A DNA stretch of 64,000 nucleotides from Nitrospirota bacterium (lineage in GTDB: Bacteria; Nitrospirota; UBA9217), in the NCBI GenBank assembly GCA_963737155.1, contig CAVTRN010000002.1, positions 2,560,001 through 2,624,000 on the forward strand. Direction: 5' to 3'. Positions 32,058 to 60,495 of this stretch are shown here, piece by piece (positions within the stretch are counted from its first letter, which is position 1; each line of letters starts with the position of its first letter). Below the pieces are notes generated by a model. The model saw only the letters and a list, made by a program, of their open reading frames with translations, was not told the origin of the DNA and did no database searches. The position numbers were made by a program, and so were the translations under genes.

Positions 32058-32288
32058 ACTCAATTAATGATATGTGAGAAAGGGCTGAAACTCTGCAGCG
32101 GTGTGAATTAATTGAATAGTTCTAGTAATAGTTATGTAGCATATGCTGCCTCCAGTAAATATCATGATGCGCTAGTGAGACAAACGGCCGTTTTTTTAAC
32201 GGGACCCCCTGCTACGCGACCTTACTGAGGGTTGAATACTGTTAATATTTATATTGTATGATATAATTTTATATTATATATTGTATTT

Positions 32289-32858
32289 ATGAAACTGAGC
32301 GTATGGGCAAAGCAACAAGGTATAACCTATCAAGCGGCATGGAAATGGTGGAAGGCCGGCAAGCTGCCGGTTGAGGCTGAGCAGATACCTACCGGAACAA
32401 TCATTATAAAAGAGCAGAAAACTGCCCAAGGTTCTGTTGCTCTTTATGCCCGGGTATCCAGTCATGACCAAAAGAAAGACCTGGACGGACAGCTCGGAAG
32501 GCTTTCCGCATATGCCGCTTCCAAAGGGTTGTCAGTTTCAAAAGCGGTGTCCGAGGTTGGTTCCGGTCTTAATGGGCACAGGCAAAAACTCATGAAGCTG
32601 CTTGCCGACTCCAACGTCAGTATTATTGTCGCCTTGCATCGTGACCGGCTTATGCGGTTTGGATCTGAGTATGTAGAATCGGCACTTCGAGCTCAAGGTC
32701 GTCAACTTATTATTGTAGACCAGACCGAGCTAAAGGACGATCTGGTGCTGGACATGATTGAAGTATTGACATCGTTTTGCGCAAGGCTCTACGGACGCCG
32801 GTCAGCGACCAATAAAGCAAAAAAAGCTCTGGAGGCCATGGAGAATGGCAAGCAATAA
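32289..32858 (+). CDS. tnpA: IS607 serine-recombinase transposase
   Basis: N-terminal HTH (MKLSVWAKQQGITYQAAWKWW), YARVSS..Q..DL..Q, GSGLN, HRDRLMRFG and FCARLYGRRS motifs. Confidence 0.95.
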   Translation: MKLSVWAKQQGITYQAAWKWWKAGKLPVEAEQIPTGTIIIKEQKTAQGSVALYARVSSHDQKKDLDGQLGRLSAYAASKGLSVSKAVSEVGSGLNGHRQKLMKLLADSNVSIIVALHRDRLMRFGSEYVESALRAQGRQLIIVDQTELKDDLVLDMIEVLTSFCARLYGRRSATNKAKKALEAMENGKQ

Positions 32859-34533
32859 GGATAAAATGGGCAAGAGCGGCAAAAGTGAAGCACTTTCTTT
32901 TACCGCTCAAACTTTGCTGATTGACATGTCTTACCTGGACACAAAGAAGTCTCTTTATCATGTTCTTGACGATATCGGCGACTCATACGGGCACATCAAA
33001 CGCTCTCTCTTTAAAGACAGCGTTCGTTCCGGCAACAAACCCATTTCATTCAAAAATGAGTATCTTGTCAGGTATGGTATCACCGCCCGGCAGTTTAACG
33101 CTATCCGCTACGATCTTGACGGCAATATCAGCTCCGCGGTTGAGGTATTGAAACTGCGGGTTGGAAAGCTCGAACAAAAAATAAAATCTGTGCGAAAATG
33201 GATTAAAACCAAAGAGAACAATGTCATTGACATACGCAAAGACAAAAAATTGTCCGGGCATGAGAAAACGCCCAGGGTGAAGTCTCTCCGTTTTGCGGTC
33301 CACAACAAAAAACGGAAGCTCCATTCATCGGAGCAGAAACTGGAAAAGCTGAAGTACGATTTGGACAAAGGCCGAATCAGGATTTGCTTTGGGACAAAGA
33401 AACTTTTCCACAAGCAGTTCAGCCTTTCTGAATACGGTTATAAATCCCACAATAACTGGCTGTCTGCCTGGAAGGCTGCCCGAAGCTCTTCATCGTTTTG
33501 TCTGGGATCGAAGGATGAAACGGCCGGCAACCAGACCTGCACGCTTGGCATCGACGGGTCGCTCAGGATACGGGTCCCAAACTATCTTGCCAAAAAATAC
33601 GGTAAACACATCATGGTGCCTACCGTAACATATCCTTACGGGCAGGAATATATTGAGCAGGCGCTCCTGTGCGGCCAGGCAATCACCCACCGGTTTGTCC
33701 GTGGCGAGAAGGGTTGGTATCTGTATTCTTCAGTTGATATCCCCCAAAGAGAAACAATTACCGGGAAACCGCAAGAAATCGGATGTATTGGCGTAGATGC
33801 AAACGAAAAAGAGATTGCTGTTTCCGAGACTGACCGGTTCGGCAATTTTGTCTGGCACACAACGTATGCTGCATGTATAAAAGACAGAACCACGGAACAG
33901 ACCGAGGCAACTTACGGTGATATCTGCGTCGGCATTATCGACCGGTCAATTAAAACAGGGAAACCCGTCGCTCATGAAACTCTTGACTTCGAAAAGAAGA
34001 AAGCATCTCTTAAGGAACAGGGAGTAACGTATGCGCGGATGCTATCCGGGTTCGCCTATTCCACCTTTTTAAACATGCTTGACCGCAGAGCATTTAAGGC
34101 AGGCGTCGGTGTGCTCTCCGTGAATCCTGCTTACACATCCGTTATCGGCAGAAACAATTATATGTCTATTCATGGCATTTCGCCGCATGAAGCAGCGGCG
34201 CTTGCTATCGCGAGAAGAGTTCAAGGATATTCCGAGTCTCCCATACCAGGCAGAACCGCCTCCCCTCTACCTGTAAGGAATCGAGAGGAGCACGTCTGGA
34301 AGTTTTGGAGCAAGATGAAGACTCGGGGAGGTTGTGGAAATCATCACAGTCTCTACCAACGACGGTCCTTACAGGACTCCCCAGGCTGCGCTGAATTGCA
34401 GAAGAAGCCATCATCCCGTCGACAGCGCAATTCTCCGGGCCACCTGCCAGCAGCAGTCTTGCTGAAAAGGCGCCAGAAGCAATCCCGATCAGCAAACAAC
34501 GGGACTTGGGCGAATCAGGGCGGGAATCCCTGA
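32845..34533 (+). CDS. tnpB: TnpB-related RuvC protein without zinc finger
   Basis: RuvC-I IGVDAN, RuvC-II AHETLDF, VNPAYTS, HEAAALAIARR; overlaps the tnpA stop. Confidence 0.88.
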   Translation: MASNKDKMGKSGKSEALSFTAQTLLIDMSYLDTKKSLYHVLDDIGDSYGHIKRSLFKDSVRSGNKPISFKNEYLVRYGITARQFNAIRYDLDGNISSAVEVLKLRVGKLEQKIKSVRKWIKTKENNVIDIRKDKKLSGHEKTPRVKSLRFAVHNKKRKLHSSEQKLEKLKYDLDKGRIRICFGTKKLFHKQFSLSEYGYKSHNNWLSAWKAARSSSSFCLGSKDETAGNQTCTLGIDGSLRIRVPNYLAKKYGKHIMVPTVTYPYGQEYIEQALLCGQAITHRFVRGEKGWYLYSSVDIPQRETITGKPQEIGCIGVDANEKEIAVSETDRFGNFVWHTTYAACIKDRTTEQTEATYGDICVGIIDRSIKTGKPVAHETLDFEKKKASLKEQGVTYARMLSGFAYSTFLNMLDRRAFKAGVGVLSVNPAYTSVIGRNNYMSIHGISPHEAAALAIARRVQGYSESPIPGRTASPLPVRNREEHVWKFWSKMKTRGGCGNHHSLYQRRSLQDSPGCAELQKKPSSRRQRNSPGHLPAAVLLKRRQKQSRSANNGTWANQGGNP

Positions 34534-34689
34534 CGTTAACCGGCAGCAGCACTGTTCGGCTGCCGTCATAGTTATGAGAAATAAAATACTATGGTTTTAG
34601 GAACGGTCGTGTCACACGCATGCGCAGTTTATAACTTACGTGGCCATCTCTTCATCAGATTTGAGACAAACGTCTTCCGCTCTGCTCCA

Positions 34690-34900
34690 GAACACCTCTC
34701 TCAGATATATGCAACAGCTTCAAGCCCTGCCGTACTTTTTCCGTAGCATTGTCTTCTTATGCCTGGTACTAGAACAAGCACGTCCTTTTCAACAGCCAGC
34801 CTCAGGACAACCCGGCCGGAGTGACCCACTGCTGTACGACCAGCATTCTGAATGAGTTTGCACCTAAACGTGGCAATAGCGTGACACGCCCGTGATGAGC
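34690..34900 (-). mobile_element. IS1380-family transposase C-terminal relic
   Basis: HAIATFRCKLIQNAGR..GHSGRVVLRLAV resembles the IS1380 C-terminal motif. Confidence 0.55.
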
Positions 34901-35381
34901 ACCTCATAGGAAATCTTCTATTTAACTGATTCGTTGAAACGGCTTTTGGGCTGTCACGCTATTTATGCGGTCCTTAATTCAGCAAGAATTGCGAAACTTG
35001 TCAACATCTGCATGAATACCGTATTCGGAATAGTTGAATTGCTCGCGAGCATTTCTAAACAGGATGGCTCGTTTTCCGCTCTTGGGTATCTTCCTGGCTG
35101 GCTGCCATCCATTTCATTGTCGCATGGCGGCAAATCTGGGTAAGGCTTCTACAAAGCGGACATGATAAAGATGACAGCAGGCTTCGAGGCGGAGATTGAA
35201 CATTCTGTTGTCTTTGGGAGTAGTGACGAGTTGGAACTCGTGATGAAAGATGGCATTTTTGCGTTACTGGACATCGTCGATCTAAATATAGCGTATTGAT
35301 GAACAATTGTCTATTTGTTGTTGCTAAGTTCATCCCATGGTTAAAACCAGGGGCTTTCTGTGAATGACTCGTTCGTCTGTA

Positions 35382-36593
35382 CTATGAACTTTGGCCCGTC
35401 TGCTGCGGTGGCTTATATCTGATGAGCCTTAGGAAGTGATCGACGAATTGCGGGTTAAACGAAACGCCGCTCCCCTTGCGAAGGACATCAGCGATCCTTT
35501 CCATCGGAATCGACCCCTGGTAGGTGCGGCTACTTCTCATCGCGTCGAATACATCAGCAATGGACATCATCTGGCTCGTGACGTTCGGGATCCACCCGCC
35601 CTTTATTGTCGGGTACCCGCTGCCATCAAACTTCCGGTGGTGCTCCAAGGCTGCCAAGATCGCCAGTTTCGGAATATCATCGATGCCCATCAGGTACCGG
35701 GCTCCCTTGACCGTATGAGTCTCAATGATTTTACGTTCTTCCGCCGTGAGTACCCCGGGCTTGGATAAAATCTCCTCAGGTACAAAGATTTTACCCACAT
35801 CATGGAGCAAAGAGGCGATCCCGATACTATGGAGATGCTCACCGCTGAAGCCCAAGCTTTCCGCCTGCGCCATGGTCAAGATGCAGACATTGGTTACGTG
35901 AGTAAAGGTATATTCATGGACGGACTTCAGCGTCGCCAGAAGACTCAACGGATTGATTTCTTGCCGGAACCCCTTGATGAATCCTTTCACCATGTCGTCG
36001 ATACCGCGAACATCGATCTTCCGGTGTTTCTTAATAGCAAGATATGTTTCTTTAAGCTCATCAATTTCCGCCGACGTGAGGGCCATCAGTTCCTGCAGGC
36101 CGTCCTCTACCGCCGTGGCACCAGTTCCTACGGTCCCTGACCCGAGATCAGTACCGGCACTACTGATGCTTCGATTTCCGATATCAGAGACGACCCGCAG
36201 TGTAACTTTGCCAAGTTTGATGTACTGGCTCGTACGCACCGAAGCAGTCTCCATCGAGGCCATATCTCTGATCAACTCCTGCACCTCCGTTTTTTGAACC
36301 CCCTTGAGAAAGGAAATCCGTTCAATCGCTTTCTTTCGCAAAACCCGCGTAAAGTTGATCACGTAAGCGCTCCCTGCCTGAAGAGGGCGGCTATCCGCAA
36401 CAAGATCGTCGCCAATGAGCAGGAGTGTTATATCCAATTTAGTCTCCAGAAGCCCCTGGAGAAGATCATAGGCCTTGTCGATGTACTGAGCCACCTGCGG
36501 ATGGGTCGGAGAATAGAGCGTTGTATTCTTCACCGCGGCGGTGAGCTGAGAAATCACCTCAACCAAATCGCGGCGCATGTCGAGTTCAGCCAT
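35382..36593 (-). CDS. HD-GYP domain protein (putative cyclic dinucleotide phosphodiesterase)
   Basis: EYTFTHVTNV, LLHDVGK, EHHRKFDGSGYP and IADVFDAMRS motifs. Confidence 0.92.
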   Translation of the reverse strand: MAELDMRRDLVEVISQLTAAVKNTTLYSPTHPQVAQYIDKAYDLLQGLLETKLDITLLLIGDDLVADSRPLQAGSAYVINFTRVLRKKAIERISFLKGVQKTEVQELIRDMASMETASVRTSQYIKLGKVTLRVVSDIGNRSISSAGTDLGSGTVGTGATAVEDGLQELMALTSAEIDELKETYLAIKKHRKIDVRGIDDMVKGFIKGFRQEINPLSLLATLKSVHEYTFTHVTNVCILTMAQAESLGFSGEHLHSIGIASLLHDVGKIFVPEEILSKPGVLTAEERKIIETHTVKGARYLMGIDDIPKLAILAALEHHRKFDGSGYPTIKGGWIPNVTSQMMSIADVFDAMRSSRTYQGSIPMERIADVLRKGSGVSFNPQFVDHFLRLIRYKPPQQTGQSS

Positions 36594-36610
36594 TCAGATA
36601 TCCTTTTTTT

Positions 36611-38917
36611 TTATTGCCCTTGCTCCACATTGTTACGCTCCATCCATTTTTTGCAACTCTTCCTGATGGAATCGTCGCCGGACCGTTTTCCTATTTGGAG
36701 GAGGCCTGTTATACTCTTGACAGGAAATCTGCCCAGGGATTCAAAAAGTAACTGTTGCATCCTTAGGCGGCGCTGAGGGTAGAGCGTCCGCGCGCGTGCA
36801 AGCCTTTCAAGGTCGCCGATAGCACGCGGATCTCCGATTTTAGCGAGCGCTTTTATGATCTCCTCATTTACCGTATAATCCGTTTCAAAGAGAATGACCC
36901 GTTTTATACGGGAAAGAAGATCGTCCACAGACTCAGTCACACGGAATTGGCCGGCGAGAAATACTGCCTGCGAAGCCACATCGGGGTCCTGGGAATGAAT
37001 AAATTCACGAAGAAAATGTGTTGCATCGGGATCTTTAAATTTGAGCAGTGTCGCCAGTACTTCAATCCTCACTTTTGCATCCTGGTTATTCAGCAAGTAT
37101 TTTATAGACGGTATGGCGTTGGGCGTGCCAGCCCAACGAATTAACTTCACCAAGTTCCGTACGTAAAGGGACCGCGGATCGCGCAAGCGTCTGATAGCCT
37201 CGCGCACAGCATCCTGTCCGAACCGGCAGAGGAGATCAAAGAGGACCCGCCGGCCGCCCGGCGTTGTGTCGATTGCATAGAGATCCATCAATCCTGGGAC
37301 CATCGCCGGTCCGAGTACGTAGAAAAAATTTGCGGCTTCCCGCCCTTTGGTACCCGCCCACCGATCGAATTCCTGGAGCGATTGGTTCATAAATGATGGT
37401 TCGTTAAAAATTTTCAAACAATCAACCGCGATGACGCGGAGATTCTCCGTCGGCTTTTCCATCGCCTGTTTGCGCATCGTCTCAAGAATATCAAGCAGAA
37501 GTATAAAATTGCCTGTTTTCAGAAACTCGGGTACAAGCGTGATCAGTTTGCGCCCGAATTCAAGGTAATCCTCTTCATCAATATTTTCTTCCATAAAGGC
37601 GATTAGCGCCCGGCCGATCTGGAAATCAAGATGATCATCTTCGAGGGTTTTCTCATATTCGTCAATGGGGATCCGTTCGGCCAGAACGCCGGTGGTTTCC
37701 GACAAACGTTTGAGCGTAGCCTGGTAATCTTCGGATACATATTCTTCATATTGTTCCCGGTCAAATAGTTTTGCCATGTGCTCGGGCAGAATATCAAACG
37801 CGAAGTCTTTCTCATCCGCGCCCTCCATTACTCGTTCGCCGGGCTGAAAAGACTGCACACTCTGGGCATGCGCCCGCGTCAGTTTACCGAGCAGTCCTGT
37901 CAGTGTTGGTGATATTTCCTTCCCTTCGGCGCTCGCCTGGCTCAGCATGTCGATCACGATATCATCGGAAAAACCACCCAAAATGTCTTCCTCCCCAATA
38001 GCTATTGTATGGCTGGAGATGCGGCGGAAGGCGACGGAAAGGAACTGTTTGCGGAGTTCGGGGTGCAGATCTTTCAACAGCATATTGAGGTTAGACAGGG
38101 TTGTCGACTGCTCCTGCGAAAGCTGCTTCTTCTCAGCCCGTACACGCACATGTTCAGAAATGATCTGGTCATAGCTCTGGAGCGCGGAGTTAGAATCAAG
38201 CCTTTGTTCATTCAGGAGACGTGCAAGTTCGGCCGGGTCGATGTGCTCCATTTCTGTTAGAGGCAAACCCTTCCCTGACACGGTAAGCGTACCTTCCGTA
38301 AGGTGCGAGATGAAATCCTGCCACAGATCGTGACTGGCCTTCGGTTTGGCAGACTTCTCACCATCAGTGTCTGGACTTCCCTTGCTCTGTGGTCTGAATA
38401 TTTCCTGTTCTTCCGTTACATAGAAGCTCCCGTAATCGATGGCCTGAATCCTGATATGGGAGATACCTGACTCATCCATGACTTTGTTTATCCCACCGGC
38501 AGCGAGGATGTCCTCGGGCTTCGTCGTGATGAAGCGGTGAAATTTCACAAGTTCATTCTTTTCCAGGCCACGGATAAAGGTAACCGATGCAATTGACTGC
38601 TGATTCATGGAGAGTGCAAAATCGCGGTAAACAGGATTTTTCCGGTCAAGGTAATCCTGCCCCACGAGGAGCGTATCCTTGGCAACGCCAAGTGTCATCT
38701 CGGAACGGATATCGAACAGTTTCTGGAGAATATCGTAGGCCCGATCAATACTTTTCGTGATCTGGATATGGCCGGGTGGATAAATCCCCACATTCTTTCG
38801 CGAGATATTCAGTTCAATTACGGCTTCAGACAATAGGCGTGTATCGAGGGGGATTTCCTTTTCGGTCTGAAAAGCAGACAGCGCAGATGTATTTATATTG
38901 TCCTTTTGGTCGGACAT
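36611..38917 (-). CDS. HEAT-repeat protein
   Basis: C-terminal HEAT repeats (LRDPRSLYVRN, NQDAKVRIEVL, ALAKIGDPRAI); the N-terminal domain is homologous to that of the adjacent HD-GYP protein. Confidence 0.85.
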   Translation of the reverse strand: MSDQKDNINTSALSAFQTEKEIPLDTRLLSEAVIELNISRKNVGIYPPGHIQITKSIDRAYDILQKLFDIRSEMTLGVAKDTLLVGQDYLDRKNPVYRDFALSMNQQSIASVTFIRGLEKNELVKFHRFITTKPEDILAAGGINKVMDESGISHIRIQAIDYGSFYVTEEQEIFRPQSKGSPDTDGEKSAKPKASHDLWQDFISHLTEGTLTVSGKGLPLTEMEHIDPAELARLLNEQRLDSNSALQSYDQIISEHVRVRAEKKQLSQEQSTTLSNLNMLLKDLHPELRKQFLSVAFRRISSHTIAIGEEDILGGFSDDIVIDMLSQASAEGKEISPTLTGLLGKLTRAHAQSVQSFQPGERVMEGADEKDFAFDILPEHMAKLFDREQYEEYVSEDYQATLKRLSETTGVLAERIPIDEYEKTLEDDHLDFQIGRALIAFMEENIDEEDYLEFGRKLITLVPEFLKTGNFILLLDILETMRKQAMEKPTENLRVIAVDCLKIFNEPSFMNQSLQEFDRWAGTKGREAANFFYVLGPAMVPGLMDLYAIDTTPGGRRVLFDLLCRFGQDAVREAIRRLRDPRSLYVRNLVKLIRWAGTPNAIPSIKYLLNNQDAKVRIEVLATLLKFKDPDATHFLREFIHSQDPDVASQAVFLAGQFRVTESVDDLLSRIKRVILFETDYTVNEEIIKALAKIGDPRAIGDLERLARARTLYPQRRLRMQQLLFESLGRFPVKSITGLLQIGKRSGDDSIRKSCKKWMERNNVEQGQ

Positions 38918-39149
38918 GATTATATATTATATACATTTTTGCCAATTTTTCCAGTGAAATTGGACGTTTTTTACGTTTTTTATTTTTTTTGAACCGTCTT
39001 AATTTAATCTGACGCTTTGCTGTGCTCTCAGTTCTCCACCTATGATTCAGGATATTTTATTCAGAGCCTCCTCGTCAATTTCGGTGATCTACGCTATAAT
39101 CAAAAGATAGTATAAATTGTAGTCTCTGCACATTGAAAGGATATTTTTT

Positions 39150-39630
39150 TTGACAGTTCCAATCGATACGGTTGCCTTGACCTGCCGGGGCGAGGCGAAG
39201 TCATTATATTCAGAGTTCTTGACAAAGAAGAGCTGGCTAAATTTTTCGTTCACTTGTCCGCAAACAATGCGATTGCTGAGCCCATACAATCAGGGATTGA
39301 TGGGAAGGGAAAGCCGCTATACCGTTGCACATGTATCTGATTTCGCTAAGGTGCGTCTAGACTATACCACGACAAAGTTACCTGTAGCGGTATTTTCTCC
39401 CTTTCAAAGAAGACTTGGCTGCATTCAAGGTAGAGGGCGATGACTGGCAGGGAAGGATCGCGAACTGTGATTGTGTTCTTCCCAAGAGCCAGAACCATGA
39501 CAACATCCAGCACGACCTCAGTGCGCTTGTGGCACGCTATGCTTCACAAGGTGCCAATGACCGAACGATTGAGTTGCTTGCGCAAATGCTCATTCGTTCC
39601 TGTAATCCCTGCATCCTGTTCAGTGCATTA
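39150..39630 (+). pseudogene. [NiFe]-hydrogenase large-subunit relic (group 3b-like C-terminus)
   Basis: GRIANCDCVLPKSQNHDNIQHDL...IELLAQMLIRSCNPCI, then SCSVH in a shifted frame, matching a degenerate RxxDPCxxCxxH L2 motif. The 5' boundary is uncertain. Confidence 0.7.
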
Positions 39631-39705
39631 TGCGTGACTGCCTTCTTTTTTCTTGACAACATTTGGGCGTGATGTTAAATTAATTGCCTTGTTACGGAAC
39701 ATTTT

Positions 39706-39781
39706 GGGGCTGTAGCTCAGCTGGGAGAGCACAAGGCTGGCAGTCTTGGGGTCAGGGGTTCGATCCCCCTCAGCTCCACCA
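39706..39781 (+). tRNA. tRNA-Ala(GGC)
   Basis: GGGGCTG/CAGCTCC acceptor stem with G3-U70, anticodon loop CTGGCAG, GTTCGAT T-loop, encoded CCA; TTGACA promoter element at 39653. Confidence 0.96.
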
Positions 39782-39788
39782 AGTTTTC

Positions 39789-39820
39789 AAGGGGTTGGTC
39801 ATCATTGACTAACCCTTTTT
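39789..39820 (+). terminator. Rho-independent terminator after tRNA-Ala
   Basis: GGGGTTGGTC-ATCATT-GACTAACCCT hairpin followed by a T run. Confidence 0.65.
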
Positions 39821-39829
39821 CATTTGACT

Positions 39830-40010
39830 GTACCAGTTTTGTACAAGTAGGAAGGCTAAGGACCTCATCCATAACGAAAGCGACCTTCTGTAAGTGGGCA
39901 GGGGCAGGATGTGCATACTTCACCGTCATCTTAAGGCTTTTGTGACCAAGCAACCTTGACAGCGTGGCAATATCGATTTGACCGGACATTATAACATGAC
40001 TTGCGTAGGA
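39830..40010 (-). pseudogene. Tyrosine integrase C-terminal relic
   Basis: YASHVIMSG.DIATLSRLLGHKSLKMTVKYAH (box II LGH and catalytic Tyr), pointing toward the tRNA. Confidence 0.8.
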
Positions 40011-40271
40011 TGGACTAAAGCTACTTTCTCTAGTGCCAACATTGCGGCCCGTTTGATTTCACACTCCGGTTTCCTTTCGGGTTATATGCAGCATTTTAAT
40101 GGCTCCAAAGTATTGACATGTCTCCACTCATAAGCCAAATTTATCTTCTATTTTTATTACGTCAAATGCAAAATGAAAAGGTCTGAATCGTCATTGTACT
40201 CATTCCTCATCGTGATACTCCAATTCCGTAGTATCATCTGGTTGAATAAAACAAGGGGAAAATCCTGTAAA

Positions 40272-41885: not shown

Positions 41886-42302
41886 TTTATTCGTAATATG
41901 TCTCCTTTTGCGTAATTACAGTGTGTTTGTTATCAAAGCGTGGAGTGAAAAAAGCAATATGTGAAGTCTTCAATTTCAGAAGAAAAAACTGTCGCGAGTT
42001 TCAGGAAGAACTATTTGACTAAACAATTTTATCACAAGGACATATGCCATGCAGTATTTATTTGGCAGTAGCTGCAGTTGGAATATGCGCTAAATCCCGA
42101 AAAATTTCAAGTCGCGCCAACCCGGTAATAAATAATCCGACGCACGACTAAAGGCATCATGGGGCGGCATTACTCAGCTGAATATTGGAGAAAATTGAGG
42201 CTATGAAGAGAATGGCTGGTGGATCGTTCCATCACCCGCTGGTCGTGCTGAAAAAGAGGTTATAGGGGACATGTTTTAAAAGGAACTACTTGTCCGACAA
42301 TA

Positions 42303-43826: not shown

Positions 43827-44079
43827 CCGACAATATCATGGCGCTCCTTCTATCCTCATCAATGGCACGACCGGCAGAACATGCACTCGAAGGACGCTCA
43901 GAAAAAGAAATAGCCCCTAGTTGCCCCCCAGAGGCCAAGACTGTGTTACCTCCTGTGTCAGTAGAGAAGTTCATAGGCGTTTATTTACGTCATTAGATCC
44001 CCTTTACTTACTTCCTTTTCGGGAACTATGTCCTTGAAAAGGGGGGAATATACAAAAAAGCCCTATTTAGCGGCCTCTT

Positions 44080-44144
44080 CTGGCAGTCTTGGGTGTCAAG
44101 GGTTCGATTCTCTTTTGGAACCACCAAGTTTTCAAAGGGTTGGT
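44080..44144 (+). repeat. Degenerate direct repeat of the tRNA-Ala 3' half and downstream bases (att site)
   Basis: CTGGCAGTCTTGGGTGTCAAGGGTTCGATT...CCACCAAGTTTTCAAAGGGTTGGT matches 39737-39799 and begins exactly at the anticodon loop. Confidence 0.8.
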
Positions 44145-44422
44145 GATAATCGCGGCGCTAACATTAAGTTGTGTTACTTTGCATCAATGGAATTTTTGCA
44201 ATATTATTATAGGGAAAATAGGCGGGATGGATTTCACTCTACAAGCGCATAACTTTTTTATTAATATTTATATTTATTGCTATGTTAGCTCGATTTGACA
44301 GAATGCAAACATAGCAATATACTTTAAAAAGAGGGGTTATTAAGAAAGCGAGAAAAAGAGGGCAGAAGTAAGTTCGAAGGTGTAGATATAATAAAAGCTA
44401 ACATTGAGAGGGAGGGATTTTT

Positions 44423-44938
44423 ATGAAAAGCCTGACGGGTTGGGATCCACTCCGGACGATGATGAGGTGGGATCCACTTGAAGAGCTTCGGTCAATGCAG
44501 CACGAAATGGACAGGCTGTTTGACCGGTTCCTTGGGAAAGGTGTCTCGAGTGAACATACAATGCTCTGGATGCCTTTAGTAGAAAGTTATACAAAAGAAA
44601 ACCAACTGGTGTTCAAGACGGAACTACCGGGTGTGGACCCGAAAGATGTGGATGTTAGCGTCACCGACCGTGAGTTGGTCATCAAGGGTGAACGGAAGGC
44701 CGAAAAAAACGCAAAGGAAGAGAATTACATCTATCGGGAGATCAACTATGGCTCTTTCGAGCGGCGTTTGGTCCTGCCCGAGGGTGCAAAAATAGACGAA
44801 CTGAAGGCAAAATTTTCGAACGGTATCCTCGAAATCACTTTGCCTGCACCAGCAATTGCCAAGACTCGGAAGATTGAGATCGAGGCTCTGAAGGAAGAGA
44901 AAAAACAGATTGAGACTGGAGCAAAGAAGGCCGCATGA
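44423..44938 (+). CDS. Hsp20/alpha-crystallin small heat-shock protein
   Basis: WDPLEEL..MQ.EMDRLF, ELPGVD, YGSFER and AKFSNGILEITLP motifs. Confidence 0.95.
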   Translation: MKSLTGWDPLRTMMRWDPLEELRSMQHEMDRLFDRFLGKGVSSEHTMLWMPLVESYTKENQLVFKTELPGVDPKDVDVSVTDRELVIKGERKAEKNAKEENYIYREINYGSFERRLVLPEGAKIDELKAKFSNGILEITLPAPAIAKTRKIEIEALKEEKKQIETGAKKAA

Positions 44939-44990
44939 CAGTAAAGTTCCAGAACAAGCTGTTGTGAACGGCGAACTCTCAAGTTTGAAT

Positions 44991-45027
44991 AACTATCCTG
45001 CAAGTGTTTTAAGAGGATAGTTTTTTT
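44991..45027 (+). terminator. Probable terminator after hsp20
   Basis: AACTATCCT...AGGATAGTT inverted repeat followed by a T run. Confidence 0.5.
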
Positions 45028-45124
45028 AAGAATAAACTTAACGCAATGAACATGCCTTCCTGTGGAAATTGAAAAGGCCATATCTTGATCTGCCCTCCTG
45101 CTCGAGCAGTTCACGTGAATAGAA

Positions 45125-45478
45125 GTGAGTGAAACGATGAAGATCGATTCTTATGCCTTCGGCAGAATCGTCATCAACGGGAAGACTTATACCTCGGACG
45201 TCATCATTTATCCCAACAGGGTTGACGCCACGTGGTGGCGAAAGGAGGGACATTTTTTTCAACTTATAGATGTGGAAGATGCGCTGCAAGAGAGGCCAGA
45301 AGTGTTTGTCATCGGCACAGGCTATGCCGGCATCATGCGCGTTCCCAGAGAAACCATTGACCGGATCGAGGCACAAGGAATCGAGGTGAAAGTAGAACGG
45401 ACATCAAATGCAGTTAGGGTGTACAATGATTTCCAGGGCACTAGGACCGTGATCGCAGCCCTTCATATCACGTGCTGA
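45125..45478 (+). CDS. Mth938-like (DUF498) protein
   Basis: IDSYAFGRIVINGKTYTSDVII, VIGTG and AALHITC motifs. Confidence 0.9.
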   Translation: MSETMKIDSYAFGRIVINGKTYTSDVIIYPNRVDATWWRKEGHFFQLIDVEDALQERPEVFVIGTGYAGIMRVPRETIDRIEAQGIEVKVERTSNAVRVYNDFQGTRTVIAALHITC

Positions 45479-45519
45479 ATAATGTCAAATATAAAACTCC
45501 CAAACCAATGATGTTATCT

Positions 45520-45870
45520 TTTTTAAGGAAACCCTAACTTCATCTTTGCAGAACTGCTCCAGTGCTACTGCCAGGACTTCAGCAAATATCTGGGGTAATG
45601 ACGTCGTTACCGGCGAGGTCTCTGGATTCTTCGAGTGATTCATCCTTGAAGATCAAAAAATCCGTAAAAACACATGCTCAAACCTCAGGACGTTACCTTA
45701 AAGAGCTGCTACCAGGCCTGCAAGCTGATTTTGCGCAGATCACTGTGGGTCAAATTCATTTTGTTGTCGATTTCTATGCAGACCAAATATTCTATACATA
45801 ACCCATCCAGCAGTTTCTTTTTTTCCTCAAAGTGATGAAGAATTGGTGTCGCTTCGGGATTAAGTGTGGG
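45520..45870 (-). pseudogene. Type I restriction-modification HsdM C-terminal relic
   Basis: Broken frames give DFLIFKDESLEESRDL..DVIT.DI and E.LAVALEQF, resembling the HsdM tail LDIFWLKDESLE...DVIAQEI.EDL.AALEQF. Confidence 0.45.
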
Positions 45871-46017
45871 AATCCCCAATTAAGTTGATATAGGCTGCTT
45901 TCGCATTGAAAGGGATAATTCCCCGATCATGCAAGGCTTTCCACTAACTTTTCGCGACTTCAACAAGTTTAATTTTCCCATCTTGCACTTTTTTTCAATG
46001 TTCTCTATACTGTTTTC

Positions 46018-47505
46018 ATGGCCTTGACAAATACAAACAACAAACAACACCGTCCCCTTCTGCAAAGAATCGCCCACCAAGCAATGATCGAACGAGGGCT
46101 TCTCCCGGACTTCTCGCCCCAGGCGCTTGCCGAACTCAATGGGATTCGTGGACCTGCGACGGAAACGTATAATAAAATGCACGATCTGCGGCAATTGCCT
46201 TGGTGTTCCATTGACAACGACGACTCTCGCGATCTGGACCAGTTGACCGTTGCAGAGGTCATGTCTGACGAGAGTGTAAAAGTCCTGGTTGCAGTCGCTG
46301 ATGTCGATGCTCTGGTCAAAAAGAACTCGGCCATCGACGAGCACGCTAGCAGAAATACCACGTCGGTATATACTGTTGCAAAGATCTTTCCAATGCTTCC
46401 GGAAAAGCTTTCGACGGACCTAACTTCCCTCAACTACGCGTCAGAACGATATGCACTGGTCGTCGAAATGGTTGTAGGCAAAAACGGAACCCTTCTTCAT
46501 TCTGATGTGTATGAAGCGCTAGTCAGTAATCATGCAAAGCTAGCATACAATAGCGTTGCCACCTGGCTTGAGGGCATTAGTCCTATCCCAAAGGAGATTA
46601 GCGCAGTTGCCGGCCTTGACGAGAACATTAGGATCCAGGACCGGCTTGCCCAACGGCTGAAGACACTCCGGCACGAACACGGCGCGCTGACTCTTGAGAC
46701 CGTGGAAGCCAGGCCGGTGTTCGATGCCGATGAACTCAAGGACCTTAAGGTTGAGCAAAAGAACAGGGCCAAAGATATAATCGAGGACCTCATGATCGCG
46801 GCAAACGGCGTAACAGCTCGCTACCTCTCCGCGAGGGGTCTACCATCGTTCCGTCGCGTGGTGCGCACTCCCAAGCGGTGGGATCGTATCAGAGACTTAG
46901 CCATGGACCACGGTCAAATACTTCCAATGGAGCCCGATGCAAAAGCATTGGAAACCTTTCTCATTAAAGCGCGCGCTGTCGATCCGCTAAGGTTCCCCGA
47001 TCTTTCCCTTGCAATTATCAAGCTGCTCGGTGCGGGTGAATATGCCCTCCAAGTGCCGGGAGACGTTTCAAGCGGCCACTTCAGTCTTGCAATCCCGGAT
47101 TATTCCCACACCACTGCCCCGAACCGCCGCTATCCCGACCTGATTACTCAGCGCTTGCTGAAGGCAGCAATCGCTGGGCACCCCATGCCCTACGAGAACG
47201 GGGAGCTGTCAACACTGGCAACGCACTGCACGGAAAAAGAAAATGATGCAAAGAAGGTAGAACGGAGAGTCAGAAAATCTGCTGCAGCAATGTTTCTTGA
47301 ACAACGAATCGGCGAGCAGTTCGAGGCAATCGTTACAGGTGCGGCGGAAAAAGGCACTTGGGTCCGACTTCCACAGCCTCCCATTGAAGGAAAACTTACG
47401 AGCGGTTTTGAAGGAGTCGATGTAGGCCAGAGGATCCGAGTCCAACTTGTAAGAACGGACGTAGAACACGGCTATATCGACTTCAAAAGGGTTGAATACT
47501 TTTAA
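46018..47505 (+). CDS. RNB-domain (RNase II/R family) ribonuclease, short form
   Basis: SIDNDDSRDLDQ, IEDLMIAAN, YSHTTAPNRRYPDL and a C-terminal S1 domain; the last codons lie within the IS607 left end. Confidence 0.92.
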   Translation: MALTNTNNKQHRPLLQRIAHQAMIERGLLPDFSPQALAELNGIRGPATETYNKMHDLRQLPWCSIDNDDSRDLDQLTVAEVMSDESVKVLVAVADVDALVKKNSAIDEHASRNTTSVYTVAKIFPMLPEKLSTDLTSLNYASERYALVVEMVVGKNGTLLHSDVYEALVSNHAKLAYNSVATWLEGISPIPKEISAVAGLDENIRIQDRLAQRLKTLRHEHGALTLETVEARPVFDADELKDLKVEQKNRAKDIIEDLMIAANGVTARYLSARGLPSFRRVVRTPKRWDRIRDLAMDHGQILPMEPDAKALETFLIKARAVDPLRFPDLSLAIIKLLGAGEYALQVPGDVSSGHFSLAIPDYSHTTAPNRRYPDLITQRLLKAAIAGHPMPYENGELSTLATHCTEKENDAKKVERRVRKSAAAMFLEQRIGEQFEAIVTGAAEKGTWVRLPQPPIEGKLTSGFEGVDVGQRIRVQLVRTDVEHGYIDFKRVEYF

Positions 47506-49174
47506 CAATTATATTGTATAATATTATTTCTTATGATAAAATGTATCTATAAAACTGAGCGTATGGGCAACGCAACAAGGTATAACCTATCAAGCGGCAT
47601 GGAAATGGTGGAAGGCTGGCAAGCTGCCGGTTGAGGCTGAGCAGATGCCTACCGGAACCATCATTATAAAAGAGCAGAAAACTGCCCAAGGTTCTGTTGC
47701 TCTTTATGCCCGGGTATCCTGTCATGACCTGAAAAGCTCGAGCACAAAATAAAATTTGCGAGAAAATGGATTAAAACCAGAGAGAACAGTATCATTGACA
47801 TACGCAAAGACACGGAATTGTCCGAATATGAGAAAACGACCAGCGTGAAGTCTCTCCGTTTTGCGGTCCACAACAAAAAACGGAAGCTCCATTCATCGGA
47901 GCAGAAACTGGAAAAGCTAAAGTACGATTTGGACAAAGGACGAATCAGGATTTGCTTTGGGACAAAGAAACTTTTCCACAAGCAGTTTAACCTTTCTGAA
48001 AACGATTATAAATCCCACAATAACTGGCTGTCTGCCTGGAAGGCTGCCCGAAGCTCTTCATCGTTTTGTCTGGGATCGAAGGATGAAACGGCCGGCAACC
48101 AGACCTGCACGCTTGGCGTCGACGGGTCGCTCAGGATACGGGTCCCAAACTATCTTGTCAAAAAATACGGTAAACACATCATGGTGCCTACCGTAACATA
48201 TCCTTACGGGCAGGAATATATTGAGCAGGCACTCCTGCGCGGCCAGGCAATCACCCACCGGTTTGTCCGTGGCGAGAAGGGTTGGTATCTGTATTCTTCA
48301 GTTGATATTCCCCAAAGAGAAACAATTACCGGGAAACCGCAAGAAATCGGATGTATTGGCGTAGATGCAAACGAAAAAGAGATTGCTGTTTCCGAGACTG
48401 ACCGGTTCGGCAATCTTGTCTGGTACACAACGTATGCTGCATGTATAAAAGACAGAACCACGGAACAGACCGAGGCAACTTACGGTGATATCTGCGTCGG
48501 CATTATCGACCGGTCAATTAAAACAGGGAAACCCGTCGCTCATGAAACTCTTGACTTCGAAAAGAAGAAAGCATCTCTTAAGGAACAGGGAGTAACGTAT
48601 GCGCGGATGCTGTCCGGGTTCGCCTATTCCACCTTTTTAAACATGCTTGACCGCAGAGCATTTAAGGCAGGCGCCGGTGTGCTCTCCGTGAATCCTGCTT
48701 ACACATCCGTTATCGGCAGAAACAATTATATGTCTTTTCATGGCATCTCGCCGCATGAAGCAGCGGCGCTTGCGATCGCGAGAAGAGTTCAAGGATATTC
48801 CGAGTCTCCCATACCAAGCAGAACCGCCTCCCCTCTACCTGCAAGGAATCGAGAGGAGCACATCTGGAAGTTTTGGAGCAAGATGAAGACTCGGGGAGGT
48901 TGTGGAAATCATCACAGTCTCTACCAACGACGGTCCTTACAGGACTCCCCAGGCTGCGCTGAATTGCAGAAGAAGCCATCATCCCGTCGACAGCGCAATT
49001 CTCCGGGCCACCTGCCAGCAGCAGTCTTGCTGAAAAGGCGCCAGAAGCAATCCCGATCAGCAAACAACGGGACTTGGGCGAATCAGGGCGGGAATCCCTG
49101 ACGTTAACCGGCAGCAGCACTGTTCGGCTGCCGTCATAGTTATGAGAAATAAAATACTATGGTTTTAGGAACGG
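47490..49174 (+). mobile_element. IS607-family element, internally deleted copy B
   Basis: Colinear with copy A but lacks about 690 bp (copy A ~32469-33163); tnpA start codon changed from ATG to ATA at 47549; both ends are retained. Confidence 0.9.
47818..49101 (+). pseudogene. tnpB: 5'-truncated tnpB with the RuvC region still in frame
   Basis: 427-aa frame nearly identical to the C-terminal three quarters of 32845-34533. Confidence 0.82.
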
Positions 49175-49317
49175 TCGGAGAAGGAAAGTCATACCTGCGG
49201 GGAAGAAGCATCACAATATTGTGTAGGATTGCCCGGGGTCTCTTGCGGCGACGAATTGACGAACGCGGAAACATATTTTTTTTAATTTGTGATCAACTTA
49301 TGTACGAAATCATCCGA

Positions 49318-49410
49318 TTGAAAACAGCCTTGACAAGGCCGCCGTGCTCTGTATAATGCTTCTCAACGGCTTCCTCCGAAGCTTGCTGCTGAGAACTCAC
49401 AGGGATCGGG
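49318..49410 (+). promoter_or_regulatory. Promoter plus hairpin module, copy 1
   Basis: TTGACA(49330)-16 nt-TATAAT(49352), followed by TTCTCA...GCTTC-CTCC-GAAGC...TGAGAA. Confidence 0.7.
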
Positions 49411-49446
49411 AAACGGTTAAGTGAAAACACGCTCTGGAGAATATAG

Positions 49447-49980
49447 ATGAATAAGAGAAACCAGTTGTACTTACTTGCAGTACTATTTATCTCCGCCATA
49501 GGAGTAACGACATTTGCTGCAGATACATCGGCTGTTTACAAAAACGTTGATAAGGGTTTTTCACTGAGGCTCCCCAATACGTGGGAAGTAAAAGAGGGTG
49601 TGGGAGGCATGGACCTTATTGCCTCATCTCCTATGCAGGAGAAGTCCGGTGGCCAGTTTCGTCCGACAGTATCTGTAGTCTGCGAAATTTTGCAACAGAA
49701 GCAACCGATTAACGAATATGCACAAAAACGTATTACAAAGTTTCGCGATTCGATGAAGGACTTACAGTTTTTAAGAACGGGCCATCAAATCATAAGCCAT
49801 ACAAATGCAAGATGGTGGATTATTTCCTACAGTGAAAAGACGGTAGCTTTCAAAGGGTTTCTTTTCATAGTAATCAAGGGTAATAAAGCCTTTACCATAA
49901 CATGCATTGCGGCTCTCAATCAATACCCGGCATATAAGGATACCCTTGGGGATATCGCGAGCAGTTTGGTTGTCGATTAG
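49447..49980 (+). CDS. Exported PsbP/DUF1795 (DcrB)-like protein
   Basis: Signal peptide; GFSLRLPNTW, FRPTVSV and KGNKAFTITC pattern. Confidence 0.7.
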   Translation: MNKRNQLYLLAVLFISAIGVTTFAADTSAVYKNVDKGFSLRLPNTWEVKEGVGGMDLIASSPMQEKSGGQFRPTVSVVCEILQQKQPINEYAQKRITKFRDSMKDLQFLRTGHQIISHTNARWWIISYSEKTVAFKGFLFIVIKGNKAFTITCIAALNQYPAYKDTLGDIASSLVVD

Positions 49981-50083
49981 CCGATAGGAAGCTATGAGAC
50001 TGGCTCGCATTCTCCTGCGCCCCGTTCCGCCCCCCGCTGTATCTTTTTGCACATAGTTTTCGCAGAACGGCCTTGGCTTCACG

Positions 50084-50176
50084 TTGAAAACAAAATTGAC
50101 AAGGCCGCCCGGCTCTGTATAAAGCTTTTCATCAGTTTCCTCTGAAACTTGATCTGAGAACTCACAGTGATTGAGG
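50084..50176 (+). promoter_or_regulatory. Promoter plus hairpin module, copy 2
   Basis: TTGACA(50096)-16 nt-TATAAA(50118), followed by TTTTCA...GTTTC-CTCT-GAAAC...TGAGAA; colinear with 49318-49410. Confidence 0.7.
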
Positions 50177-50185
50177 ACCGGTCTC

Positions 50186-51586
50186 ATGAAAACACCTTCT
50201 TCTGTTTCCGACGCACTCGACTTCCTGAATAACAGCAGAACCGCGCATCTGGATGCTCTGAAAGATCTTGTCCGTATCCCAAGCATCAGTTTCCCGGGCT
50301 TTGACCCTGCACCGGTGAGGCGCTGCGCCGAATCGGTTTCCTCTCTCCTGAAGGCATGCGGCCTAAATGATGTGCACCTGCTCGAAACCGGAACAGGCTA
50401 TCCATCAGTATTCGGGCAATGGACAGGAGCGCAGGGCAAGCCCACCATCCTCCTCTATGCTCATTACGATGTACAGCCCGTCGGCCGGGAGGAACTCTGG
50501 ATTTCGCCACCTTTTGAGCCGACCGTGCGAAACGGACGGCTTTACGGCCGTGGAACTTCCGATGACAAGGCAGGCGTAGTGATGCATGCGGTCGCGGTGC
50601 GTTCCTGTCTTGAAGGAGCGGGATCCCTTCCAATGAATGTCAAAATTCTGATCGAAGGCGAAGAAGAGGTGGGATCGACCAATCTCCATGAAATCCTTGA
50701 TAGGAGTCTTGGGCTTCTATCCGCTGATGCAGTGCTCATCGCCGACAGTGAAAATTTCGACAGTGGTATTCCGACACTTACAGCGTCGCTTCGCGGTATC
50801 GTGACGGTCAATGTCGAAGTCCGGGCGCTTGAATCAAGCGTGCATTCTGGAACCTGGGGCGGTCCTCTCCCCGATCCTGTTCAGGCCCTTTCACGTATGA
50901 TCGCCAGCCTGACCGACGAAGACGGGAGACCCGCCATCTCCGGACTATATGACAAGGTTCTAAAGCTCTCACCGCGTGACGCTGCCCAACTCAATACCCT
51001 GCCGTTCAACGAATCTCTCTTCCGGAAGCAGGCGAAGCTGCTAAACGGGGTACAGATTACAGGCGGTCACGGATCGATATACGAGAAAATGTGGTATTGC
51101 CCGTCTGTCGCAGTGAACGCGATCGAAGCAAGCAGCAGGAAACAGGCCGCGAATATCATTAATGACGTGGCATGGGCAAGAATCGGCATCAGGATCGTCC
51201 CCGATATGGATCCTGGCGAAACACTTGAACTGCTCATGAGTCACTTGAGAAAAAATGCACCTTGGGGTGTCCAAATAACCATGAAACCCGAAACACCATC
51301 ACCATGGTGGAAAACTGATACATCAGGGCCCGTGTTTGGGGCCGCATTGCGTTCTCTCGAACAGGGTTACAACGCAAAGCCTGTCGTCGTAGGAGCGGGC
51401 GGATCGATTCCCTTTGTACAGACGATCACCGATGCGCTCCACGAAGTTCCCGCCCTACTCTTCGGCGTCGGGGATCCTTACACAGCGGCACATTCGGAAA
51501 ATGAGAGCCTGCTCATCTCCGACTGGGAAAAGGGATGCCGGAGTCTCATACACCTGTTTACGGAGTTGGCGGGCGGGATCGATTGA
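50186..51586 (+). CDS. M20-family dipeptidase/deacylase
   Basis: YAHYDVQP, YGRGTSDDK, EGEEEVGS, GGSIP and AHSENE motifs; ATG at 50186 after GAGGA. Confidence 0.93.
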   Translation: MKTPSSVSDALDFLNNSRTAHLDALKDLVRIPSISFPGFDPAPVRRCAESVSSLLKACGLNDVHLLETGTGYPSVFGQWTGAQGKPTILLYAHYDVQPVGREELWISPPFEPTVRNGRLYGRGTSDDKAGVVMHAVAVRSCLEGAGSLPMNVKILIEGEEEVGSTNLHEILDRSLGLLSADAVLIADSENFDSGIPTLTASLRGIVTVNVEVRALESSVHSGTWGGPLPDPVQALSRMIASLTDEDGRPAISGLYDKVLKLSPRDAAQLNTLPFNESLFRKQAKLLNGVQITGGHGSIYEKMWYCPSVAVNAIEASSRKQAANIINDVAWARIGIRIVPDMDPGETLELLMSHLRKNAPWGVQITMKPETPSPWWKTDTSGPVFGAALRSLEQGYNAKPVVVGAGGSIPFVQTITDALHEVPALLFGVGDPYTAAHSENESLLISDWEKGCRSLIHLFTELAGGID

Positions 51587-51596
51587 TATCAAGCAC

Positions 51597-51881
51597 ACAT
51601 GGATGATGACTTCTTTTGTAATTCACCGCAGCCTGGAGAGTCCTGTAAGGACCGTCGTTAATACAGGTTATATGGCTGTTATAACCTTCCCGAACCTTAG
51701 GGCACCTACATTCATTTCCGAAGGACCTTGCATTTGGTGTGCTTCAATCGGTAGTTTGCTCTTAAGCCACCAATTCCATGCAGTTGTGGTATATTAAACC
51801 TTGTTTTTTTGCCAATACGCTTAAATTCATACATACGATATATGACTCATAATACTATATTGTAATGAATAATTATCAACC
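51597..51881 (-). mobile_element. Miniature, diverged relic of the same IS607 family (copy C)
   Basis: Minus strand: GGTTGA left end, a tnpA 5' fragment (MNLSVLAKKQG..TAWNWWLKSKLPIEA, ATG 51830), then AACGACGGTCCTTACAGGACTCTCCAGGCTGCG...CATCATCC matching the tnpB 3' region of copies A and B. Confidence 0.8.
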
Positions 51882-52583
51882 CTTTTCCTGCGATGCGGTG
51901 AACGCTTTATCCTCGATTTTAACGGGAATACGTGTCTCCGCATTTCTCAGAAAAACTGTCAAGGCATCTTTTTGCTTTTCCGCAAGATAGGTCTGTCTGA
52001 ACGTGTCCTTATCCTTTTCAAAATCACCGGGCTTCGCTTTTGGGTTTTCCCGTTGATAGGCGGAGCTGAGTTCGGCATCTTCCACCATCACGCTATCCCT
52101 GACAAGCTGCTCCATTTTCTGGCGAAGAATAAAATCTCGCTGATCGGCCTCGAATGCGGCCGGAGTCATGTTGACGCGTTCAAGAATTCTTTCATAGGTT
52201 TGTTTGTCGAACCTGCCGTTCTGTGAGAATCCAGGCATCTTCATGATGTTCGCCTGAAGTTCCCTGTCCGTAACCTGAAGCCCAAGATTTTTTGCTTCGT
52301 CGACGAAGATCTGGTTAACAATCAATTCCGTGAGAGCCTGGCTTCGCAGACTCTTTTCAACGGAATCATTGAACTTGTCTTTCAGCGCATCCTTGTACGT
52401 ATCGTACAAATTCTGGTAGACACGGTTCACGTCATCATTGGTAATGACGACCCCGCCCACTTTCGCCACCGCTTTTCCTCCCACGGACGACGGATAGATT
52501 CCGAAAAAAAGAAAGGTAACGGTAACCAGTCCGACGATTACCCACATCATCCAGCCCATGTGTTTCCGAATCCATTCAATCAT
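51876..52583 (-). CDS. SurA N-terminal-domain (PpiD-like) membrane-anchored chaperone
   Basis: MIEWIRKH, TM helix, VAKVGG..IT and GL.VTDREL...F...GRFD...Y pattern. Confidence 0.88.
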   Translation of the reverse strand: MIEWIRKHMGWMMWVIVGLVTVTFLFFGIYPSSVGGKAVAKVGGVVITNDDVNRVYQNLYDTYKDALKDKFNDSVEKSLRSQALTELIVNQIFVDEAKNLGLQVTDRELQANIMKMPGFSQNGRFDKQTYERILERVNMTPAAFEADQRDFILRQKMEQLVRDSVMVEDAELSSAYQRENPKAKPGDFEKDKDTFRQTYLAEKQKDALTVFLRNAETRIPVKIEDKAFTASQEKG

Positions 52584-60419: not shown

Positions 60420-60495
60420 GGCGGTGTAGCTCAGCTGGTAGAGCAGGGGAATCATAATCCCTGTGTCCGGGGTTCGAGTCCCTGCACCGCCACCA
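60420..60495 (+). tRNA. tRNA-Met(CAT), probably elongator
   Basis: GGCGGTG/CACCGCC acceptor stem with paired G1-C72, anticodon loop ATCATAA, GTTCGAG, CCA; TTGACA-17-TATCGT promoter at 60373. Confidence 0.93.

Follow-up and report, generated by a model that had tools for sequence, protein, structure and literature searches.

An IS607-family element of a Nitrospirota bacterium with a divergent TnpB-like gene, a covarying right-end RNA and a predicted RGGG motif

Among the closest described systems are ISXfa1 and IS607 of Xylella fastidiosa and Helicobacter pylori, in which a serine recombinase gene is followed by tnpB. According to passages of the ISXfa1 report, the RNA runs ~17 nucleotides (nt) past the right end of the element, the target-adjacent motif (TAM) is GGG and not CGG, and the intact element is spared since CGG precedes the guide; GGG is where most copies are found in both species (bioRxiv 10.1101/2023.08.09.552727). 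Here, we analysed a stretch of 64,000 nt (the window) from a Nitrospirota bacterium of the UBA9217 lineage (assembly GCA_963737155.1, contig CAVTRN010000002.1, positions 2,560,001 to 2,624,000) and describe an IS607-type element, copy A. We consider it likely that copy A is an active IS607-family element with a divergent RNA-guided TnpB, an RNA scaffold and an RGGG TAM. As in ISXfa1, copy A has a serine recombinase gene and then tnpB, its copies sit in GGG, and the GG core is preceded by G in the left junction but by C in the right end; the use of the TAM and the read-through into the flank are known for ISXfa1. In contrast to ISXfa1, with its typical active site and ~144-nt scaffold as far as that source describes them, the TnpB-like protein of copy A has 562 amino acids (aa), a His for the RuvC-III Asp and no zinc finger, and the RNA has ~247 nt. 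In addition, −2 is preferentially a purine here and +1 a pyrimidine.

For the IS607 TnpBs with RAGATH-18-derived RNAs, the part of the study that deals with their TAMs gives AGGAG in 18 and GAGGG in 4 of the 22 strains, which agrees with the sequence beside the left end (PMC11061315). With the ISFba1-type IS607 TnpBs, as portrayed in sections of the same source, copy A shares the IS607 context, the G-rich motif by the left end and a predicted Cas12f-like fold. Unlike these proteins of ~390 aa with the residues D194/E290/D371, the present system has no RAGATH-18 in the window and its protein matches them in sequence only below threshold. A further group is the major TnpB clade RIIIr-4, characterised in passages of PMC10691335 by a RuvC-III Asp to His exchange and the absence of the C4 zinc finger. 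The protein of copy A shows both of these features, and it is by features and not by placement in a tree that we liken it to RIIIr-4. The passages on this clade in PMC10691335 give no TAM, RNA structure or element ends. For the present element, the ends are defined, and a TAM and an RNA structure are predicted.

TldR-type nuclease-dead TnpB derivatives, in the accounts we drew on in part, are domesticated host genes, unlike the gene described here, which keeps D318, E378 and H448 and is present in 14 near-identical mobile copies. ISDra2 of the IS200/IS605 family uses a Y1 transposase with a single-strand mechanism and a TTGAT TAM. Like ISDra2 TnpB in the sections of PMC8612924 that describe it, the tnpB-like accessory gene of copy A is of the RuvC type and overlaps the right-end RNA with its 3' end. 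The ISDra2 homing model, with the TAM in the left flank and the guide in the right flank, would also be applicable here; ISDra2 TnpB has a D-E-D triad with a zinc finger, unlike the element here. An IS607 element with TnpB homing is of a known kind, and this element differs in its protein clade and its uncatalogued RNA.

A first-pass annotation of the window had proposed that three copies, A, B and C, all begin AG-GGTTGA (here and below, hyphens mark the element edge or set off the core), and this was confirmed from the sequence. Copy A is found in the context ctgAG-GGTTGAATAC at the left and TTTTAGGAACGG-tcgtgtc at the right, copy B in aaaAG-GGTTGAATAC and TTTTAGGAACGG-tcggaga, and copy C on the minus strand in aaaAG-GGTTGATAAT, with similarity fading near 51597. 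As had been noticed, copies A and B share the right end followed by TCG. They have 0 mismatches over the last 310 nt, and 90.7% identity over the first 150 nt.

The copy survey was made in the source genome, which has 4.84 Mb in two contigs, and the junctions were also collected from seven other multi-copy genomes, where the ends were set by comparing the copies with each other. Over all 45 distinct left junctions (18 in the source genome and 27 in the seven others), 44 have G at −1, and 44 have a purine at −2 (A in 27, G in 17), with C in the remaining one. The 18 junctions of the source genome have G at −1 in 17 cases, A in 12 and G in 6 cases at −2, and follow no rule at −3. At 49% GC, the binomial probability of at least 17 G at −1 is 6.5e-10 and that of 18 purines out of 18 at −2 is 3.8e-6. 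In the seven other genomes G was found at −1 in 27/27 and A in 15, G in 11 and C in 1 at −2, and one of these genomes has four copies that each carry GG before the core, where those two bases could be element sequence. The left flanks are therefore not varied but read RG-GG at the 45 junctions. The AGGG motif of the first-pass annotation holds in its GGG part; its fixed first A gives way to R, and the motif becomes RGGG.

The right ends were located with a covariance model of the right-end RNA, described below, which found 35 places in the genome. Of these, 32 finish in GG, and their 16-nt flanks all differ from one another. This GG is preceded by C in 27, by T in 4 and by G in 1, the single G belonging to the weak covariance match in copy C. 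In the right flanks of the 32 copies, +1 is T in 27, C in 3 and A in 2, +2 is T in 12, A in 10, G in 6 and C in 4, and +3 is G in 11, A in 8, T in 7 and C in 6. Since +2 and +3 vary, TCG is not invariant; it lies outside the element, its presence beside both A and B is a coincidence, and only the pyrimidine at +1 is favoured. In the other genomes, 21 of the 24 right ends found by nhmmer read ...TTT[T/C]AGGA[A/G]CGG and then T; two of the remaining three are without the motif and one is cut by the contig end. All 21 clean ends thus have CGG. The target is 5'-RG-GG-Y.

A single copy leaves the GG core ambiguous, and the register of the element ends was fixed by orthologous uninterrupted sites. 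A gene of the RNase II family, which has RNB and S1 domains, carries copy B within its last codons, and the copy is flanked by ...gacttcaaaag + GG + tcggagaagg. The orthologous gene was taken from seven congeneric genomes with 77-83% protein identity. It reads ...gacttcag[g/a]a[g/t]-GG-TCGGGG... in five of them and -AG-TCGGG in a sixth, and the string of the seventh differs slightly; exactly AG-GG-T is present in 4/7; where uninterrupted, the sites continue GG-TCGGGGAAGGAAAG... For copy A, an ortholog of the site was recovered in 1 of 14 congeneric genomes searched, the intergenic DNA being otherwise too diverged. This ortholog (G001) reads ...cgaccatactgag-GT-TCGCGTCAC..., i.e. ...actGAG-GT-TCG. 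The 2 nt between the flanks at the uninterrupted sites are GG in 5/7 for B and GT in the single ortholog for A. By this comparison of sequences, one GG stands on each side after insertion, without target duplication, and the left AG and the right TCG pre-exist the insertion. Because AG and TCG were present beforehand, the empty sites predicted as AGGGTCG (...AG-GG-TCGG... in the orthologs for B, ...GAG-GT-TCG... for A) and the predicted starts of the guides are correct. The right flank of copy A is kept in the G001 ortholog and is therefore target DNA and not part of the element.

Copy A belongs to a family, F1, that has 8 full-length copies of 97-100% identity in the genome, and several interrupted or partial copies besides. 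Six elements of 1885 bp form a second family, F2, which has no tnpA, but a homologous tnpB-like gene and the same right end as F1. The left end of F2 differs from that of F1 and reads GGTTCTCAACTGG; the RG-GG junction is common to both families. The F2 elements are presumably mobilised in trans by the F1 recombinase. In F1, tnpA is intact in 7/8 copies. The tnpB-like gene is full length in 7/8 F1 copies and in 5/6 F2 copies, where the intact gene encodes 563 aa. There are 12 intact genes in 14 copies, and the 'one intact TnpB' of the first-pass annotation has to be given up. Recent mobility is evident from the 14 near-identical copies at different sites. An example of F2 outside the window lies at G000:C2:2269265-2271147 (L023). 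Two F1 copies that are otherwise full-length, at G000:C1:486064-488438 and G000:C2:2322320-2324696, are damaged; one has tnpA cut to 93 aa and is 2 bp shorter, and the other has tnpB cut to 487 aa.

The last part of the element is conserved in a way that differs from the rest of the gene. F1 and F2 are 38-75% identical per 60-nt window along the gene, versus 92% in the last ~75 nt. The tails of the homologous open reading frames (ORFs) are read in different frames where the DNA is alike: GTWANQGGNP here corresponds to ...GLGESGRESLTLTGNSTVRLPS in P0007. That the tail DNA is kept while the frames differ suggests that the constraint acts on the nucleic acid. The last 260 nt were aligned in 13 sequences (alignment A3) drawn from F1, F2, four diverged fragments of the source genome and five Nitrospirota loci. 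RNAalifold predicted 47 pairs on A3, 26 of them with compensatory changes. The structure was revised to 53 pairs in 10 helices by putting in a local GGUCC/GGACU hairpin and a CAUAGU/ACUAUG hairpin; for the former, a long-range helix of RNAalifold (A3 columns 43-50 / 305-318) was set aside. In the 13 sequences, the revised structure pairs 88.2% of the cells; sliding the partners by 1-3 columns lowers this to 35-41%. Both sides change in 30/53 pairs, and 0/500 shuffles reach the observed values on four of five measures.

To look beyond the source genome, related loci were collected; 542 of 581 candidate stretches were confirmed and 80 of the 542 were kept. Their sources include Nitrospirota, Bacillota (Neobacillus and others), Chlamydiae and Desulfobacterota-type metagenome-assembled genomes, and 59 of these 80 have a TnpA-like gene directly upstream. 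The covariance model matches 73/80 of the loci, all on the gene strand at the 3' end of the gene, and 72 matches span the whole model, whereas an nhmmer profile of the right end found 24/80. A large alignment of 61 distinct sequences, fitted to the covariance model, which favours the structure, has 91.2% of its cells paired versus 33-47% when slid, 50/53 compensatory pairs and a covariation score of 0.513 compared with 0.137 in shuffles. Many G-U pairs fit the plus strand only (e.g. GU 19 at pair 39-307). The covariation supports a structured RNA encoded on the gene strand, overlapping the 3' end of tnpB and ending exactly at the right end of the element. The first-pass annotation had expected the scaffold within ~34300-34606, and we place it there at ~34360-34606. 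When the window was searched with Rfam, only 2 tRNAs were found at the gathering score and just chance snoRNA/intron fragments of ≤16 bits at E ≤ 10; RAGATH-18 was not matched in the window at either threshold. A search of sequencing runs found the stretch in soil metagenome DNA runs, and 3 RNA-library runs contain 5% of its words. RNA-library contigs over 34240-34607 are 85-95% alike, that is, from relatives, and one contig of 371 nt spans 34240-34607. They were not counted as expression because only contigs were available, DNA is possible in such libraries and the ends are unreadable.

The conservation of the TnpB-like protein was analysed in an alignment of 39 homologues that are 36-76% identical. 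The residues D318 (GVDxN), E378 and D381 (ExLDF) and H448 (HxAAAxAIARR) are invariant in 39/39, and the residue after H448 is variable (E, Q, A, C, G or H). Among 8000 candidates scored, at least 2468 homologues were found at E ≤ 0.001; none has a precomputed Pfam domain, and in the source records some carry the name 'IS605 OrfB family transposase' or are called 'TnpB-related'. A profile of the 39 homologues had its best match, at E 0.03, to AsCas12f across the YaRmLS...NPaYTS stretch. An AlphaFold2 model computed from the same alignment has a mean predicted local distance difference test (pLDDT) score of 80.3, with values <50 for the residues 497-562. Foldseek against the PDB returned 52 matches at E ≤ 0.001, the best to Cas12f (8hr5, E 2.9e-8), followed by Cas12k and other Cas12f structures. 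Further matches were to Fanzor2 (2.2e-4) and ISFba1 TnpB (8iaz, 8.2e-4), and RuvC itself matches the nuclease core. The Foldseek probability is 1.00 to Cas12f, Cas12k, Cas12g, Fanzor2 and ISFba1 TnpB, with target-normalised TM-scores of at most 0.57. The model predicts a Cas12f/TnpB-like fold with a WED-REC-RuvC architecture. The last ~66 residues (34333-34533) are predicted to be disordered and overlap the RNA; this tail is likely the RNA gene read through. The model also has a very long helical hairpin at residues 81-175 (33085-33370; helices 81-132 and 138-175), after the invariant ARQFN motif.

The recombinase was assigned with NCBIfam NF033518 (IS607 family transposase), which it matches over residues 5-176 with 197.1 bits against a cut-off of 110, and with Pfam Resolvase (66 bits, 5.3e-18). 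The element has a serine-recombinase transposase, a GG core at both junctions without duplication and a tnpB-type gene downstream of tnpA, as IS607-family elements have. The motif ACTGTT at the left-end positions 9-14 (32238-32243) recurs in a hairpin loop of the right end (34550-34557, GCACTGTTCGG). In Parachlamydiaceae elements (L064 and other loci), ACTGCTTG is found at both places instead. Because the motif changes together at both ends, this part of the right end probably serves both to bind the recombinase and as a loop of the RNA.

Our preferred explanation combines these elements as follows. TnpA would move the element by recombination at the GG core, without target duplication, into 5'-RG-GG-Y sites, and the second gene would encode a divergent TnpB with a D318-E378-H448 centre and no zinc finger. 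Transcription would read through the right end, and the right flank would then give a guide of ~16-20 nt, in analogy to the tested IS607 TnpBs. The protein would bind the right-end RNA, and RGGG would be the TAM. After excision, the rejoined donor site, consisting of RGGG and the guide target, would be cut, and repair from a sister copy would restore the element. The intact element would be spared, with CGG and not GGG before the guide at its right end. By the same analogy, it is plausible that copy B, the stand-alone RNA at 22174-22334 and other short copies are served in trans by the 12 intact genes. We infer from the tested systems that the RNA is made, that it is bound by the protein, that RGGG acts as TAM and that DNA is cleaved. 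The interpretation of the first-pass annotation as a whole is partly supported, since its sequence predictions hold and its functional claims remain analogy. A more far-reaching proposal, for which we see even chances, is that the D-E-H, zinc-finger-less TnpB clade is a working RNA-guided homing nuclease with its own ~247-nt uncatalogued RNA and an RGGG TAM, spared by the right-end CGG. The RG-GG-Y bias would then be a footprint of TnpB-driven retention and not only of the choice of the recombinase. In a bolder variant, the D-E-H centre would only nick or bind, and would serve a different RNA-guided step in the transposon life cycle.

A number of results speak against an active RNA-guided TnpB. 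The 562-aa protein matches no Pfam family at E ≤ 0.01 or at the gathering score, and at E ≤ 10 only the start of the TNB domain (15.8 bits, cut-off 26.3). The NCBIfam model NF040570 (guided_TnpB) reaches 37.9 bits versus a cut-off of 100 and covers the residues 367-454 only, TIGR01766 reaches 26 versus 32, and a sequence search of the PDB gave nothing above threshold. In 39/39 homologues the third catalytic Asp, that of RuvC-III, is replaced by a His (H448), and in none of the 39 is there a Cys pair between NPAYTS and HxAAA, so the C4 zinc finger is absent. With the curated profiles, the Asp-Glu-Asp triad and the zinc finger all failing, the protein is not a canonical TnpB; its predicted fold is Cas12f/TnpB-like. 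The passages of PMC10691335 on RIIIr-4 treat activity as an inference, in that conservation 'suggests' activity and 'altered substrate specificities' are allowed, and in the literature searched we found no experimental work on RNA-guided cleavage by the His-for-Asp, zinc-finger-less TnpB clade; a second study that names RIIIr-4 does so only in choosing representatives for a tree. The RNA 5' end at ~34360 and the guide length of ~16-20 nt are rough estimates. The junction motif could also be set by TnpA alone.

This last point leads to another explanation, in which RG-GG-Y only reflects which sites the serine recombinase prefers, the conserved structure at the right end has a role in transposition or gene regulation (for instance as recombinase sites, terminator or mRNA stabiliser) and the TnpB-like protein is not an RNA-guided nuclease. 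The His-for-Asp exchange and the loss of the zinc finger are in line with it, and ACTGTT at both ends, co-changing to ACTGCTTG, looks like a recombinase site. However, a recombinase site at ACTGTT leaves the 10 covarying helices unexplained, and covariation in 50/53 pairs over ~247 nt together with strand-specific G-U pairs argues for a folded RNA and not for duplex DNA sites. Like omega-RNAs, the RNA extends over the end of the gene and up to the end of the element, the residues D318, E378 and H448 do not vary between phyla, and G versus C before GG at the two ends is the pattern of self-avoidance tested in ISXfa1. We therefore regard a role of the recombinase alone as unlikely. Less probable still, in our view, is RNA-guided binding without double-strand breaks, by a nickase or by a binder that has lost nuclease activity and would repress or mark the empty site in a TldR-like manner. 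The altered catalytic centre would agree with such a function, as would the substrate specificities allowed for the clade in the cited part of PMC10691335. But TldR-type proteins, as far as they are described in our sources, are host genes, whereas this gene is carried by a mobile element in 14 near-identical copies and its D318, E378 and H448 are kept invariant. Finally, the shared AGGG could have been due to chance or to misplaced ends, as just three copies were known at first reading and one copy does not settle the GG-core register. This has already been refuted by the 45 junctions in 8 genomes, by the probability for G at −1 in the source genome alone and by the orthologous uninterrupted sites that fix the ends, and we give it practically no weight.

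The model with the TAM at the left and the guide at the right has already been shown for canonical IS607 TnpBs, and the principle is not new. To this, the present element adds a natural and well-defined case from a large TnpB clade, with at least 2468 homologues and apparently no experimental study in the literature searched. For this clade, the element supplies exact ends, a target motif from 45 junctions, uninterrupted sites and 32 distinct natural guides in one genome, as well as a covariation-supported RNA structure that is fit for RNA family catalogues. These inputs serve the question of whether RNA-guided DNA cleavage is still possible with a D-E-H centre and no zinc finger.

Table 1. 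Coordinates of the element copies, their genes, junctions and predicted RNA parts in the window.
Feature	Position	Strand	Remarks
Copy A, full-length IS607-type element, family F1	32230..34606	+	2377 bp; among the 8 full-length copies of F1
tnpA, serine recombinase, 189 aa	32289..32858	+	NF033518 and Pfam Resolvase matches
tnpB-like gene, 562 aa	32845..34533	+	overlaps tnpA by 14 nt
Predicted omega-RNA scaffold A, ~247 nt, 10 helices	34360..34606	+	covariance model match 34349-34606, 274.5 bits; first helix 34364-34378
Predicted guide A, TCGTGTCACACGCATG	34607..34622	+	right flank; guide use inferred
Left junction of copy A, AG-GG	32228..32231	+	predicted target/TAM motif RGGG; last GG is the recombination core
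Copy B, deletion derivative	47490..49174	+	alignment to copy A
Predicted scaffold B	48917..49174	+	covariance model match; within the last 310 nt identical to A
Predicted guide B, TCGGAGAAGGAAAGTC	49175..49190	+	right flank; guide use inferred
Left junction of copy B, AG-GG	47488..47491	+	orthologous uninterrupted sites AG-GG-T in 4/7
Copy C, decayed remnant	51597..51881	-	left end and 5' scaffold piece
Left junction of copy C, AG-GG	51880..51883	-	sequence
Fourth copy, stand-alone right-end RNA, 161 nt	22174..22334	-	covariance model match 78.8 bits, E 9e-23

The window also contains shorter copies (Table 1). Copy B aligns to the positions 1-245 (92%) and 933-2377 (97%) of copy A; most of tnpA and approximately the first 105 codons of tnpB are deleted, and both ends are kept. 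The last codons of the RNase II-family gene are replaced by copy B and the stop of this gene now lies inside the element (47482-47505). Copy C consists of a diverged left end and a 59-nt piece that matches the positions 2129-2187 of copy A, the 5' part of the scaffold, with 92% identity, and the covariance model matches it weakly with 28.2 bits. It was considered as a guide donor and rejected, since without a right end it cannot supply a guide. The left end of copy C provides the stop codon (TGA) of the neighbouring SurA-like gene (51876-51883). The fourth copy, which was missing from the first-pass list of copies, is located downstream of trpA without tnpA or tnpB and ends ...TTTCAGGAATGG-tctag. 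It terminates in AATGG instead of AACGG and is possibly a remnant, or else a non-autonomous element of the miniature type.

The two tRNA genes found with Rfam are located at 39706-39778 and 60420-60492. Elsewhere in the genome, at G000:C2:2748631-2748897, an element of ~270 bp resembling a miniature inverted-repeat transposable element combines a diverged left end (copy A 9-217, 71%) with the terminal ~70 nt of a right end (89%), and its right terminus is clean (...AGGAACGG-t).

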